Origin: an uncultured virus (IMG/VR IMGVR_UViG_3300025889_000100)
Taxonomy: Duplodnaviria; Heunggongvirae; Uroviricota; Caudoviricetes
Reading direction: 5' to 3' (one strand)
DNA: 20,000 nucleotides
IMG/VR virus record: IMGVR_UViG_3300025889_000100
Positions 5,969 through 20,000 of this stretch are shown piece after piece; position 1 is the first letter of the stretch, and each line of letters starts with the position of its first letter. The translations under genes and the position numbers were made by a program. The notes below the pieces were generated by a model. The model saw nothing but the letters and a program-made list of their open reading frames with translations. It was not told where the DNA came from and made no database searches.

Positions 5969-6856
5969 TTACCACCATTCGTCTAATTTCATTTGTAGTT
6001 TTCCTGTCCGTATTGAAGAAATGTCCCATTCCATTGCCTTGTAAATTGGCTTCGCTTTGTTTATCACTTCTTCTGCGTAGTGTTTGTAGTTGGGAATGTA
6101 ATCATTAAAATCTTCATACACTGTTCCCGAAACAAAATCTACTTGTCTTTTTTCTTTTGTGAGAGGGTGGGTGTAGGTATCATTAACACCCTGTACTTTC
6201 ATAAACAAGTATGAATCATCAAAAGTTTTGTCTTCTTTTTCCCAAGCATACAGAACCCCTGCGATACCTGAACCGATTGTGGGTTTCTTGTATTTAGTTG
6301 TTAAGAAGAATTTGGTTTCAGTTCCGCATTTATCACACCATTTAATCTTAAGGCATTCAGTTAAGTGGTGTTGCTTTTTGCATTCTGGACATTTAACCTC
6401 AAATCTTTCTTTACGCAAACGACTTCTCTTGATAATCTCTTTGTTTTCGATTTCACCATTGATAACATCATTGTATTTTTCATGTAAATACTTGTTGATT
6501 TCTTTCATATCTTTCTGTTCCACCCACATTCTCAATACATTTGTTTGTACTTCTTTTGCGAGTTTAGTTTCACTAACACGCTTTGCAGTAAAACCAGTCA
6601 TTGTGAATTTAGGTTCATCAAGCCAAACTCCATCCTCCCAAGATACTAAACCTGCGTTTCTATTCTTTGTTGTGCCAACACCTAATGCCGAAAAATACTT
6701 TTCAAATTCAAGAACAACAGGATGTTGTTCAAGATTTAATACATTAGGAAAGTGTTCACGAACTGAATCTTCAATCTCTTTGATTGCTGATTCAGCCTTT
6801 TCAATAGATTCAATCTGAACATAGATTGAATCCGTATGTCCATAAACTACTTTCAT
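5969..6856 (-). CDS. polB: family B DNA polymerase, C-terminal subunit (motif C, rest of palm, thumb); start revised to ATG at 6856
   Basis: Starts MKVVYGHTDSIYV after a GGTGA RBS at 6861-6865. Contains LEFEKYF, KNRNAG and GFTAKR; ends in PIP-like QMKLDEWW. Confidence 0.9.
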   Translation of the reverse strand: MKVVYGHTDSIYVQIESIEKAESAIKEIEDSVREHFPNVLNLEQHPVVLEFEKYFSALGVGTTKNRNAGLVSWEDGVWLDEPKFTMTGFTAKRVSETKLAKEVQTNVLRMWVEQKDMKEINKYLHEKYNDVINGEIENKEIIKRSRLRKERFEVKCPECKKQHHLTECLKIKWCDKCGTETKFFLTTKYKKPTIGSGIAGVLYAWEKEDKTFDDSYLFMKVQGVNDTYTHPLTKEKRQVDFVSGTVYEDFNDYIPNYKHYAEEVINKAKPIYKAMEWDISSIRTGKLQMKLDEWW

Positions 6857-6860
6857 AGTA

Positions 6861-7055
6861 TCACCATGCGTTTTCAAAATAGAGTTTGCCATCAGTATAT
6901 TGCATCAATTCCTGCTTGATTGTTTTAATGTCCTTTAATAAATCTGCAAACGTAGTATTCTCTTCATAGAGAATACCCAACTCGTTTTCAAGTCTCTTTA
7001 CTGTTTGCTTTAGATTTGCTACTTCTGCTTTTAATTCTTTAATTTCTTTACTCAT
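6861..7055 (-). CDS. small coiled-coil protein
   Basis: Heptad-like IKELKAEVANLKQTVKRLENEL; GGTGA RBS upstream; ATGA overlap with the previous ORF. Confidence 0.75.
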   Translation of the reverse strand: MSKEIKELKAEVANLKQTVKRLENELGILYEENTTFADLLKDIKTIKQELMQYTDGKLYFENAW

Positions 7056-7183
7056 ACTATCACCGTTACGATTGTTATAATGGTTATTATATTTACGATA
7101 TTTACCATCATCAATATCTTATTGCTTTTTGCTATCATAGCAAGAAGTTCTTCGAGAAGTTCATTGGTTTTGTCCATCATCAT
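7052..7183 (-). CDS. small protein with hydrophobic C-terminal anchor (about 43 aa)
   Basis: Manual translation MMMDKTNELLEELLAMIAKSNKILMMVNIVNIITIITIVTVIV*. Its stop overlaps the next ATG. The exact start among three ATGs is uncertain. Confidence 0.65.
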   Translation of the reverse strand: MMMDKTNELLEELLAMIAKSNKILMMVNIVNIITIITIVTVIV

Positions 7184-7325
7184 TCTCTTCACTTATCCTT
7201 GTAATAATAGCGTTCCTTTTTAGATTATTCATCATTTGAAATAATTCCTTTACTTCTTGTAAAGTAATATCCCATGTTTCTTCTGTATCATAAGATACTT
7301 CAACAGTTACAATTCTCTTCTTCAT
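7161..7325 (-). CDS. hypothetical protein (54 aa)
   Basis: Manual translation MKKRIVTVEVSYDTEETWDITLQEVKELFQMMNNLKRNAIITRISEENDDGQNQ*, with a GGAGG RBS upstream. Confidence 0.7.
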   Translation of the reverse strand: MKKRIVTVEVSYDTEETWDITLQEVKELFQMMNNLKRNAIITRISEENDDGQNQ

Positions 7326-7557
7326 ATAAATGCCTCCATTGTTCTTTAATTACCCAATGTCTGTTTCTTCTTGTTCCTACTGCAAAGGCATAAGGTTTCA
7401 ATAATGACGCTAAACGATTAGCCTTATAAACTGTTCCGTGTTCTTTTTCATAGAAAGAAACTATTTCTTCTAAATAGAAATTATCTGGATTTTCTATCTG
7501 TTTCAATGAATCAATTAACTTCTTTTTTATTCTGTAATTTCCTGAACTTCTTCCCAT
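7300..7557 (-). CDS. small basic protein, possibly winged-helix DNA-binding
   Basis: Starts immediately after the polB-N stop. Helical pattern followed by a short beta hairpin (AFAVGTRRNRHWVI). The fold is inferred. Confidence 0.6.
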   Translation of the reverse strand: MGRSSGNYRIKKKLIDSLKQIENPDNFYLEEIVSFYEKEHGTVYKANRLASLLKPYAFAVGTRRNRHWVIKEQWRHLYEEENCNC

Positions 7558-9228
7558 TTATTCCATCTCCTTTGCTTTAAATGCGGCTAAACGAATTGCT
7601 TCTCTTGCACTAGCAGTAATACTAGCGGCTAAATCTACATCAGCCCAACCAAATCCTTGAAAGGCAACAATGCCATAGAACGATGCCATTAATCTTTTTA
7701 CTGCCATTTGATTGTTATACCACTTGACATATTCATTTTTGTTATCATTCTCTCTTGCTTCTTTCATAAGACGCTTATATTCATTTCTTAATTCTTTTAA
7801 TTCAAGAACTGCTCTCGGTAAAAGGCCGAGATTATCTGTCTTATAATAGAGCATTTGTTCTCTATCAGTAATACTGAAATCTCTCGGTGTTAAAATATTT
7901 ACACCAAATTCTGTTGGTTCTTCTGACTTAGTTTCCCATGAAATGTTTCTAGCAATCATCATACTAGGATAAAGACCAGCAAAATCAAAAGCAGCAACAT
8001 TAAGATGTAATCCATTTGTTTCTTCACTTAATGGGTCATAAATCATAGCACCGTCATATTCTTGACGCTTCTCTACTTTTTCACCTGTTGGTGCAATCCA
8101 TGTAGCATTACGCATAAAATAAATTGAACCCATATGACTAGCATAAAAACAAGCATCGAATGGTGCAATCAATAATCTTTGTAGTGCGATAATTGCCTCA
8201 CTACAATAATTTAATTCATCCAATTCTACCATTAGTTCAACATCAACTAAAGCATACTTCAAATATGTATCAGTATCTTCTAACCATGCTCTACGATAAA
8301 ACTCGTTAGGGTCTGGAAACTTTTCTGAAACTAGTTTCTTTCGATTAAGAACTAATTCAGATACATAATCTAAACTCAATGAAGGTAAAGTTCCTCTTTG
8401 TGAATCATTCCATTGACGTTCAAAGGCCATGTCTAAATTGAGGGTAATGCGCCCCTTGATGGGCTGTTCGATACTTCCGAACCCCTTTTCACCATAAAGG
8501 AATTTGTAGCCGTTCTTCGTTGAAACAACGCCCTTTACTTGGCTTACAGGAGATATTACTAAGGGATTCAGACCCAAAGCACACGCTCGCTCAAGTAGTT
8601 TCGGAACATCAGCAAAATTACCAAACCATGAAATAAGCATATCTGGATTTTTGTCCTGAATTGTTTGCATAAAATTTTCAAGCATATCTTTTTCTGAATC
8701 ATACTGAAATAACGATACTTCATGATTATTATAATTGCTATATATTTCTTCATTGATATGAGTATCAGGAAACCATACCCATTGGTAATAAGTTTCATCA
8801 TAATTATCATACATTACAATAGTAGTAATACAATCGTGATATTGTCCACCTTGTTGCCATTCCATATCCCAATACCATTTACGCATTTTATATTCAGGCA
8901 AAGAACCTAAAGTATCAACTGCATATCTAAATGATAAAGGAACATCTGCTTCATATGTCTGAAGAAAACTCTTCTTTGCTATTTTAATATCTTTGGCAGA
9001 TTCAACATATACACGAATAAGTTTTGTTCCTTCAAGATTATACCAATTTCCTTCTTCATAAACAAAATCTCTTTCAATAAACTTTGAAGGTTTGTATGAA
9101 GTTGGCCGCTTTGAATTTACTGAGATGTAGAAATACGGTATAAAATTATCAACCTTTTGTATTAATTCTTCACCGTTTCTCCATGAAGTGTAAATTGTTT
9201 TTCCATTATCTAATGCACTAATTATCAT
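7558..9228 (-). CDS. polB: family B DNA polymerase, N-terminal subunit (N-terminal domain, exonuclease, motifs A and B)
   Basis: Archaeal-type PYFY and YEADVP...RY; ExoI WDME, ExoIII YALVD; motif A DFAGLYPS; motif B QMAVKRLMASFYG; ends ITASAREAIRLAAFKAKEME. Confidence 0.92.
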   Translation of the reverse strand: MIISALDNGKTIYTSWRNGEELIQKVDNFIPYFYISVNSKRPTSYKPSKFIERDFVYEEGNWYNLEGTKLIRVYVESAKDIKIAKKSFLQTYEADVPLSFRYAVDTLGSLPEYKMRKWYWDMEWQQGGQYHDCITTIVMYDNYDETYYQWVWFPDTHINEEIYSNYNNHEVSLFQYDSEKDMLENFMQTIQDKNPDMLISWFGNFADVPKLLERACALGLNPLVISPVSQVKGVVSTKNGYKFLYGEKGFGSIEQPIKGRITLNLDMAFERQWNDSQRGTLPSLSLDYVSELVLNRKKLVSEKFPDPNEFYRRAWLEDTDTYLKYALVDVELMVELDELNYCSEAIIALQRLLIAPFDACFYASHMGSIYFMRNATWIAPTGEKVEKRQEYDGAMIYDPLSEETNGLHLNVAAFDFAGLYPSMMIARNISWETKSEEPTEFGVNILTPRDFSITDREQMLYYKTDNLGLLPRAVLELKELRNEYKRLMKEARENDNKNEYVKWYNNQMAVKRLMASFYGIVAFQGFGWADVDLAASITASAREAIRLAAFKAKEME

Positions 9229-18989: not shown

Positions 18990-20000
18990 TTATTCCCCCA
19001 TTAATACTGCTACATCTGTAGTCAAGAAAAGGTTTGCGATTGACATTGCTGCATTGAAACTTCCTAATGTTACAAGAAGAGGGTCAAAGATTCCTGCCTC
19101 TCTTAAATCACAAGAAACCCCAGTTACCATATTAATTCCCATATCTCTATTATCATCAAGAAGTGTATCATATCTATCAGCATCAATTCCTGCATTTTCT
19201 ACTAAAGCCTGTAAAGGAGCAGTTAAAGACTTATACACAATAAAATCTCCTTTCTGTTCAATGTCCAATGCCTTTCTTGCATTAAACAATGACTTTCCGC
19301 CACCGATAATAATTCCACCCTTTAATGCAGATTTAGTCGCATTTAGGGCATCATCGAGTCTTTCCTTAGTTTCTCTCAATTCAACGGTTGAGCCAGCACC
19401 AACATGAATAATAGCAACGCCACCCGCCAAACGAGCCAAACGACGCTTCAATCTTGCCTTATCCATACCCTTTGCATCTTCGACACTACCTCTTAGTTGG
19501 GCGATTTTATCTTTTGGATTACCTTCTCCGCCAATCAGAATTGTTTTCTCCTTCGATACCACAACCTTCAAGCAACTTCCAAGTTCTGTTAATGAAACTA
19601 ATTGAGGGTCATCCTTTGCTTCGTTAGTAAAAACTTTACCACCGACTAAAGATTGAATATCTCCTAATTCATCAATTTGAGCATCACCAAAATTGGGTGC
19701 AAGAATAGCCGCACATTGAATTGTATTTGCAACTACGTTAGCAATAAGATTGTTTAATGCTGAACCTTCCATACCTTTACACATAATTAATAAAGGCCGA
19801 CCTTGTGCAGAAGAAATCTCAAGAACTGGTAAAATATCTTTAAAGTTACGAATGTTTAGATTCGACATAAAGACAAGAGGATTCTCAAATACGGCTTCAC
19901 CATTTTCAGTATTTGCCATAAGGTGACTTAAGTAACCTTCATCTAACTCAATACCTTCTTTAACTTCAAGATAAGTCTTGTTTGTTTTAGATTCTTCAAC
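18990..20000 (-). CDS. groEL: group I chaperonin (GroEL-like), 5'-truncated by the window edge
   Basis: The frame is open to the window end (VEESKT...EGIELDEGYLS). Motifs APNFGD, RLARLAGGVAIIHVGA, ERLDDALNAT, GIIIGGG and GIFDP. Confidence 0.93.
   Translation of the reverse strand, partial: VEESKTNKTYLEVKEGIELDEGYLSHLMANTENGEAVFENPLVFMSNLNIRNFKDILPVLEISSAQGRPLLIMCKGMEGSALNNLIANVVANTIQCAAILAPNFGDAQIDELGDIQSLVGGKVFTNEAKDDPQLVSLTELGSCLKVVVSKEKTILIGGEGNPKDKIAQLRGSVEDAKGMDKARLKRRLARLAGGVAIIHVGAGSTVELRETKERLDDALNATKSALKGGIIIGGGKSLFNARKALDIEQKGDFIVYKSLTAPLQALVENAGIDADRYDTLLDDNRDMGINMVTGVSCDLREAGIFDPLLVTLGSFNAAMSIANLFLTTDVAVLMGE

Follow-up and report, generated by a model that had tools for sequence, protein, structure and literature searches.

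The window analyzed here, a stretch of 20,000 nucleotides, covers bases 61896-81895 of the 93,195-bp record of an uncultured virus (IMG/VR IMGVR_UViG_3300025889_000100; CheckV completeness, 100%). Every long open reading frame (ORF) in the window lies on the minus strand, and two of these minus-strand genes, at 7558-9228 (N part) and 5969-6892 (C part), together encode a family-B DNA polymerase (PolB). A first-pass annotation of this DNA had noticed non-canonical residues in polymerase motifs A, B and C and in the motif that usually reads KKRY. All four motif strings were located in the minus-strand translation, and the two genes and their motifs are arranged as follows.

7558..9228, minus strand: N part of the polymerase, 556 amino acids (aa), covering the N-terminal domain, the 3'-5' exonuclease domain, the first portion of the palm with motif A, and the fingers with motif B
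5969..6892, minus strand: C part of the polymerase, longest ORF 307 aa, with the remaining palm (motif C and KxY) and the thumb
7963..7986, minus strand: motif A, DFAGLYPS, with Gly418 (7975-7977) in place of the usual Ser (Ala in Pfu)
7672..7698, minus strand: motif B, KRLMASFYG, with Ala515 (7684-7686) in place of Asn
6827..6844, minus strand: motif C, YGHTDS, with His19 (6836-6838) in place of the first Asp
6650..6667, minus strand: KxY motif, KNRNAG, with Asn77 (6662-6664) for the second Lys of KKRY and Asn79 (6656-6658) for its Tyr

Against the Pfam gathering cut-off of 23, both parts belong to family B: the scores were 71.8 and 34.6 bits for the N part, with 37.7 bits for the C part. The N part matched the first ~190 model positions of PF00136 (E 6.6e-20) as well as PF03104 (E 1.7e-8), and the C part matched positions 221-360 of PF00136 (E 1.4e-9). 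Among solved structures, HMMER returned Pfu, Pol delta and KOD for the N part, and the C part also aligned to Pol delta. In the whole 93,195-bp record PF00136 matched the two split pieces alone, which makes this enzyme the sole PolB of the genome.

The register of the motifs was set by HMMER alignment to solved PolBs. DFAGLYPS aligned with DFRALYPS of Pfu and KRLMASFYG with KLLANSFYG of Pfu, so that Ala515 corresponds to Pfu N492 (KOD N491, RB69 N564); against yeast Pol delta, YGHTDS aligned with YGDTDS and KNRNAG with KKRYAG. A hand count against a halovirus PolB, as opposed to a tool alignment, gave the same register without gaps, with 19 residues from an LEFEK-type anchor to the Tyr position. 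Motif A agrees with the consensus DxxSLYPS in that the metal-binding Asp415 and the steric-gate Tyr420 are invariant, with Gly in place of Ser. Motif B departs from KxxxNSxYG by a single residue (Asn to Ala), a deviation rather than a loss of the motif; motif C departs from YxDTDS, with its two Asp, by the replacement of the first Asp with His; and the KKRY consensus reads KNRN. The odd residues that the first-pass annotation had read in the four motifs are thus present at the positions claimed for them, and the range that it gave, 6826-7990, does enclose the three lettered motifs but not KNRNAG, which lies outside it at 6650-6667.

The rest of the catalytic machinery is conserved. As had also been claimed, both metal-binding aspartates are kept, and they are invariant in relatives: D415 in the N part and Asp21 of motif C (D9 if the C part is counted as 295 aa). 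Motif A retains Leu419 and Tyr420 beside Asp415, the fingers retain Arg481 and Lys485, and motif B retains Lys511, Ser516, Tyr518 and Gly519. The exonuclease motifs are present as Exo I D121/E123 (DxE), Exo II N204..D207 (Nx2-3(F/Y)D) and Exo III Y325..D329 (Yx3D). With the exception of N204, these retained catalytic, finger and Exo residues were invariant in 22 aligned relatives.

We considered whether the polymerase might have lost its catalytic activity or taken on another role, as in the case of the "inactivated" archaeal B2 PolBs. In favor of this, two residues are lost, the first motif C Asp and the second KKRY Lys; in the B2/G2 PolBs, too, motif C is described as holding a single Asp together with a conserved His, their Exo motifs having been lost (PMC7544198). 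However, Exo I-III are intact in the present enzyme, unlike in B2, and both metal-binding aspartates are invariant. The enzyme is, moreover, the only PolB in a genome that also encodes a clamp loader, ligases and nucleases. Motif C contains two Asp in most PolBs, but the primer-independent PolBs (piPolBs) that lack the first of them are described as highly active (PMC7544198). We therefore regard a dead or repurposed polymerase as highly improbable. Membership in archaeal B2 itself, where Exo I is unconserved and Exo III is missing, was rejected, Exo I-III being invariant here.

In order to follow the odd residues beyond the window, we turned to relatives of the N part in IMG/VR. At least 570 were present, and the best 80 of 570, at 64-100% identity, were examined; codons at the odd positions were counted in these 80 loci and five further ones, giving 85 related loci. 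The counts were as follows.

Motif A position 4: Gly in 83/85, Gln in 2; codons GGT 47, GGA 25, GGG 8, GGC 3
Motif B position 5: Ala in 79/82, Ser in 3; all four Ala codons used
Motif C position 3: His in 65/65; codons CAT 53, CAC 12
KNRN, each Asn: 63/63; codons AAT and AAC mixed

Synonymous codons vary freely while the amino acid is nearly fixed, and these data therefore indicate purifying selection on the odd residues. A regular-expression tally over the 80 loci found YGHTDS in 60; of the others, 19 were unmatched and 1 matched by chance at a site outside the polymerase. KRLMASFYG was present in 59 of the 60 loci with a match, 20 being unmatched. A C part was located in 57 of the 80 loci and lay apart from the N part in every one of them; the remaining 23 had no C part within the available DNA. 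The gap between the two parts ranged from 469 to 1938 bp in 20 measured loci and reached ~2.5 kb by coordinates.

The first-pass annotation had suggested that the substitutions might stabilize the interface of the split polymerase, and had proposed a comparison with other PolBs to see whether the changes track with the split. When longer proteins with similarity to the C part were sought, six unsplit PolBs were recovered, each ~800-830 aa long and encoded on contigs as large as 110 kb. The unsplit P0001 (827 aa) carries DFAGLYPS, KRLSASFYG, YGHTDS and KMNRNAG, and it reads straight through the junction between the two parts. P0010 (780 aa), also unsplit and found by an exhaustive search of representatives, carries DFAGLYPA, KRLSASFYG, YGHTDS and VMNRNAG. 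A further group of unsplit proteins, P0002-P0006 and P0012, has DFKSLYPS/T, KRxVNAxYG, YGHTDS and KKNRYCG. In the two halovirus PolBs taken from deposited genomes, every motif is canonical. When P0001 was used to search IMG/VR, only more distant relatives were returned, at 28-47% identity, and one of them, L097, is split.

A tree was inferred from the N-part columns of 42 hand-chosen rows by a quick IQ-TREE search under LG+G4, with branch support from the Shimodaira-Hasegawa-like approximate likelihood ratio test (SH-aLRT). The split clade was monophyletic (SH-aLRT 99), P0001 and P0010 formed its sister group (SH-aLRT 99), and the unsplit P0002, P0003, P0006 and P0012 were the next branch outward (SH-aLRT 100). 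Taken with the motifs of this outer branch, the tree indicates that His and Asn77 are older than the whole group. Gly, Ala and Asn79 appear to be either older than the split or independent of it, and the split itself appears to have arisen once, within a lineage already holding all four changes. By these sequence comparisons, the odd residues have been inherited within a large group of marine viral PolBs, whole and split alike, and are unrelated to the split.

These observations bear directly on the idea that the residues stabilize the split interface or compensate for it. Such a role would suit the place of the cut, which lies ~5 residues ahead of motif C, the N part ending where P0001 has KAKELG. 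It would also suit the behavior of the C part in structure prediction. When this part was modeled alone from a shallow alignment of 22 rows, the thumb was confident, with a predicted local distance difference test score (pLDDT) of ~90, and residues 1-18 and 48-94, a portion of the palm, had a pLDDT of <50; a palm so poorly defined fits one that would need the N part. However, the same set of residues occurs in the unsplit sisters P0001 and P0010, and more distant unsplit relatives already pair YGHTDS with KNRY. A role at the split interface is contradicted by these unsplit carriers and was rejected; we consider it extremely unlikely. The changes thus do not track with the split, and the occurrence of the same residues in unsplit PolBs is one part of what the first-pass annotation had itself named as counting against its proposal.

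We then asked how widely the motif C and KKRY changes occur together. An alignment of 215 sequences was assembled from the top representatives, homologs found by alignment search and the split N parts, and 196 full-length PolBs could be scored at both the first Asp position of motif C and the second position of KKRY. Asp was combined with Lys or Arg in 130 of these, His with Asn in 62, His with Ala in 1 and His with Gly in 1; Asp with a non-basic residue was seen in 2/196, both divergent sequences of doubtful alignment. All 64 His-bearing PolBs therefore lacked a basic residue at the second KKRY position, and 130 of the 132 Asp-bearing ones had Lys or Arg there. On a FastTree phylogeny for which the motif columns had been left out of the alignment, three changes of His were counted, and all three independent contrasts lose the basic residue (p 0.25); three events are too few for the His/Asn coupling to reach significance. 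At motif A position 4 and motif B position 5 the 215 rows read S/N in 102, G/A in 63, G/N in 18, A/N in 11, A/A in 4, S/A in 1 and other combinations in 16. Motif B changes 7 times on the tree, and its Ala mostly occurs with Gly or Ala in motif A. Over 6-7 independent contrasts, ~4 changed with motif A, ~0.2 against it and ~2 left it unchanged (median p 0.125), so that covariation of the motif A and motif B substitutions is suggestive only. The co-adapted active site proposed in the first-pass annotation is thus plausible, given the His/Asn and Ala/Gly pairings, but the independent events are too few for it to be called significant.

A further case of the pairing may lie outside the clade. The 522-aa PolB of Rhodothermus phage RM378, a cultured bacteriophage, has YSHTDS paired with INRY, and in a polymerase-domain tree it sits among Asp-type sequences, outside the His clade, on a long branch with weak support. 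This placement hints that RM378 may be a further independent His/Asn case. Separately, an 876-aa protein with canonical YGDTDS and KKRY (P0050) fell within the His clade, on a long branch (SH-aLRT 93). Both residues may have reverted in P0050, which would speak for the pairing, or its position may be an artefact.

The His clade looks essentially viral and non-cellular. A scan with one pattern, xxxxxGHTDS, over 185,579 species genomes (one per prokaryotic species) returned a single relative, L090, on a contig binned as an Altibacter metagenome-assembled genome (MAG). Two His-type PolBs carry the label of bacterial MAG proteins, the Altibacter one (L090) and one from Maricaulis, a split C part that stands unremarked in a published table (PMC7544198 Table S2, row 2392); both are probably viral contigs binned with bacteria. 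The YGHTDS signature was not mentioned anywhere in a full-text literature search, with subscription journals and closed supplements beyond its reach.

The residues replaced in this clade have been studied in model polymerases. The second Lys of KKRY (RB69 K706, phi29 K498, Pol delta K814, Pol epsilon K967) is reported to hydrogen bond with primer base n-2 in the minor groove, and it is near-essential in RB69, phi29 and Pol epsilon; RB69 K706A nearly abolishes synthesis, and Pol epsilon K967A gives inviable spores and an enzyme that degrades the primer rather than extending it (PMC4333401). The motif B Asn (RB69 N564, Pfu N492) is reported to touch a beta-phosphate oxygen of the incoming deoxynucleoside triphosphate (dNTP) (PMC3061061), and KOD N491S has lowered DNA synthesis and raised specificity for threose nucleic acid (TNA) (PMC9738464). 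These phenotypes would be in keeping with substitutions that alter function here, whether in fidelity, the balance of polymerase and exonuclease, metal preference or nucleotide selectivity, so that the clade would form a class of PolB with a function of its own. In the model enzymes, K706A and K967A bring about a shift to the exonuclease mode, the N564 contact and the N491S phenotype bear on the motif B change, and the odd residues are strictly maintained in relatives. Sequence, however, measures no function. In addition, a 93-kb genome with a single replicase depends on it for accurate copying of ordinary DNA, and the steric gate, the finger Arg and Lys and the Exo motifs are all canonical. 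We judge a functional change of this kind to be unlikely.

A related explanation would be that the viral DNA contains a modified or non-canonical nucleotide, to which the active site is adapted. The Ser-to-Gly and Asn-to-Ala changes together strip two polar side chains from the dNTP pocket, and the genome encodes its own RTPR-like class II ribonucleotide reductase, although the match is below the family cut-off. The first-pass annotation had proposed searching the genome for nucleotide-modification genes, and this search gave no support: in the 93-kb genome, Pfam named no thymidylate synthase, hydroxymethylase, deaminase, DpdA/Que-type, PurZ-type, methyltransferase or glycosyltransferase protein among 130 ORFs, a weak negative because most of the ORFs are without a family. 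Identical residues are also spread over many viral lineages. Adaptation to a modified nucleotide is, in our view, very unlikely.

We favor instead a compensated, still accurate replicase. The two polypeptides would assemble into one polymerase; since the cut lies ahead of motif C, the motif A Asp and the motif C Asp are on different chains, and the active site would be built from both. The first changes would have been Asp to His in motif C and Lys to Asn at the second KKRY position, which mark a wide, mostly viral and mostly unsplit PolB clade. Ser to Gly in motif A and Asn to Ala in motif B would have come next, recurring in several subclades, and the Tyr-to-Asn change of KxY would have arisen in the ancestor that the split clade shares with its unsplit sisters. 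At the primer terminus, an uncharged His/Asn/Asn set would replace the Asp/Lys/Tyr set that holds the terminus and the minor groove, on the DNA-facing side of the KxY strand; on the beta-phosphate side of the dNTP pocket, Gly/Ala would replace the Ser/Asn that line it. In RB69, D621 (the first motif C Asp) and K706 reportedly interact and jointly position metal ion A. The sequences and the tree show where the residues lie, how conserved and how widespread they are, and in which order the changes came about; that the swaps compensate one another and that the enzyme is active is what we infer from them. The two-subunit PolB most likely remains an active, proofreading replicase, and the descriptive core of this account is, in our judgment, probably correct. 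It is also possible, although we lean toward doubting it, that this large and abundant clade of marine viral replicases has arrived at an alternative construction of the family-B primer-terminus site, by means of the Asn/His pair, with the split lineage additionally replacing the KxY Tyr and the motif B Asn that contacts the beta-phosphate.

Several points weigh against a compensated replicase. Replacement of the second KKRY Lys by Ala in RB69 or Pol epsilon nearly abolishes synthesis, and activity of the present enzyme would thus depend on the supposed compensation. Relative to Pol delta and Pfu, there is one extra residue between the LEFEK anchor and the motif, which leaves room for Lys76 to take the sensor position. 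At the p values given above (0.25 for His/Asn; median of 0.125 for Ala/Gly), the covariation is short of statistical proof. Finally, P0001 and P0010 could be secondarily re-fused proteins, in which case the residues would still not be tied to the split.

Textbooks give the family-B motifs as invariant, and in yeast Pol epsilon a mutation of the second KKRY Lys is lethal. Here, a natural clade that is common in ocean viromes does without this Lys, and its loss is always paired with the motif C His, which suggests a specific and testable dependency between the two positions. A tempting link between the odd residues and the splitting of the gene is corrected; what is left of interest is the clade-wide use of His and Asn in place of the Asp/Lys pair, including the normally essential lysine. 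If His/Asn takes over minor-groove reading and the positioning of metal A, altered partitioning between polymerase and exonuclease, altered metal use or altered tolerance of analogues might be expected. Should these enzymes prove to use such an alternative construction of the site, polymerase engineering would have in them a naturally occurring template.

The segment that separates the two genes, and two features of the C part, are listed below.

6861..7557, minus strand: insert splitting the polymerase, ~660 bp between the parts, with four small ORFs
7300-7557, minus strand: insert ORF of 85 aa, found in 17 of 80 related loci (tblastn)
7161-7325, minus strand: insert ORF of 54 aa, tblastn matches in 68/80 related loci
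7052-7192, minus strand: insert ORF of 46 aa, tblastn matches in 64/80 related loci, strict pattern in 61
6861-7055, minus strand: insert ORF of 64 aa, found in 19 of 80 related loci (tblastn)
6860..6865, minus strand: hexamer GGTGAT, resembling a Shine-Dalgarno sequence and lying 3 nt ahead of the internal ATG at 6856
6326..6391, minus strand: CxxC...CxxC zinc-ribbon-like insertion in the thumb, confident in the model

The true start of the C part is likely the ATG at 6854-6856, which would give a protein of 295 aa; the start M[K/D/E]VVYGHTDS is kept in 22/22 aligned C parts. The hexamer GGTGAT would be its putative ribosome-binding site. The longest C-part ORF, from 6892, overlaps the upstream 64-aa ORF. 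In two related loci (L024 and L066), a stop upstream leaves the internal ATG as the sole start of the C part. The best matches of the C-part model in the PDB were archaeal PolBs and Escherichia coli Pol II. In the zinc-ribbon-like thumb insertion, the first Cys pair was invariant and the second was conserved at >=90% among 22 split-clade C parts; the insertion is absent from the unsplit P0001.

An intein, an intron or a frameshift as the origin of the split was rejected on ORF structure, and an intein-interrupted PolB in particular because the parts are separate ORFs with their own stop and start codons. Over the clade, the insert ranges in length from ~280 bp to ~2.5 kb. None of the four insert ORFs matched Pfam above the gathering cut-off, one having weak coiled-coil matches below it. 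The 46-aa ORF has a core of MMMDKTNELLEELLAMIAKSNKILMMVNIVNI.TI.T... and a hydrophobic tail. Its mean amino-acid identity is 86%, above that of the polymerase, and its variable sites number 18/10/34 at the three codon positions, of 42 each. The identity and the variability by codon position indicate that the ORF encodes a real, strongly constrained small tail-anchored protein. For the 54-aa ORF, searches gave no Pfam or NCBIfam family, and the ESM Atlas returned unnamed clusters alone. The distant split PolB of L097 is cut at the same site but has another insert, of 280 bp (L097:7683-7963), with a 68-aa ORF containing hydrophobic stretches.

Elsewhere in the genome, Pfam identified RFC, two ATP-dependent ligases, nucleases, a terminase, a portal protein, a protease and a major capsid protein in addition to the split PolB, and the ribonucleotide reductase is RTPR-like. 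Pfam searches (E<=0.01 in the window and E<=0.001 in the rest of the genome) named no AEP primase, MCM helicase, sliding clamp or SSB, for which profile-profile searches were needed in the published work on magroviruses (PMC5434244). A chaperonin is encoded at genome positions 80885-82426 on the minus strand; its C-terminal 309-336 aa fall within the window, at 18990-20000, where the gene is cut by the window end. It is of the GroEL type and not the thermosome type (NF000592, 441 bits, above the cut-off). Outside the window, an ORF of 2190 aa at genome positions 53693-60265 (plus strand) lies beside tail genes and has no Pfam match, and genome ORFs of 933 and 941 aa are likewise without a family. 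Also outside the window, a ThiF-family protein and a TFIIB-type zinc-ribbon protein are encoded at genome positions 84282-84839 and 85000-85851 (minus strand), near the RTPR-like reductase.

This gene content agrees with the published description of group B/B1 magroviruses, which lists a split DNA polymerase, ribonucleotide reductase, GroEL-type chaperonin, RFC, ligase(s) and a caudoviral module in genomes of ~90-100 kb (PMC5434244). By that description, the PolB in the window is probably the replicative enzyme of a magrovirus of the group-B type (magroviruses are viruses of marine group II archaea), and the split itself was therefore already known. The group B (B1) magroviruses (Philosof et al. 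2017, PMC5434244) share with the window a PolB cut within the catalytic domain and a marine archaeal-virus genome, but the main text of that paper describes no residue changes (it has no word beginning with "motif"), unlike the signature reported here. Among deposited phages, the best matches were the PolBs of haloviruses (Hafunaviridae) and of T4-like phages, at ~24% identity, and the C part had no match in deposited phage genomes by tblastn at E 1e-3. Published trees place these halovirus and T4-like PolBs as related (PMC5434244, PMC7544198); unlike the present enzyme, they have canonical DxxSLYP, KTIxNSIYG, YGDTDS and KK(F/K)Y. The nearest unsplit relatives are the metagenomic, magrovirus-type P0001 and P0010, which vary at the same four positions, are sister to the split clade and come from contigs of ~85-93 kb, but which are single proteins of 780-827 aa without the zinc-ribbon insertion in the thumb.

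Other natural two-gene family-B polymerases are described for Methanothermobacter, for T4-like gp43 variants and for RM378, but these are cut elsewhere (PMC3061061), and in RM378 motif A still has its Ser and motif B its Asn. The B2/G2 and primer-independent PolBs, like the present enzyme, are described as lacking the first Asp of motif C; the B2/G2 enzymes differ in that Exo I and Exo III are lost and a D(K/R) motif is carried, and the likeness of their motif C His to the one reported here is by description only (PMC7544198). The engineered KOD N491S polymerases (Kod-RS and Kod-RSGA) are substituted at the same motif B Asn as the window PolB. They differ in that their Ser was obtained by laboratory selection for xeno nucleic acids (XNA), whereas the Ala found here is natural and conserved in a replicase (PMC9738464).

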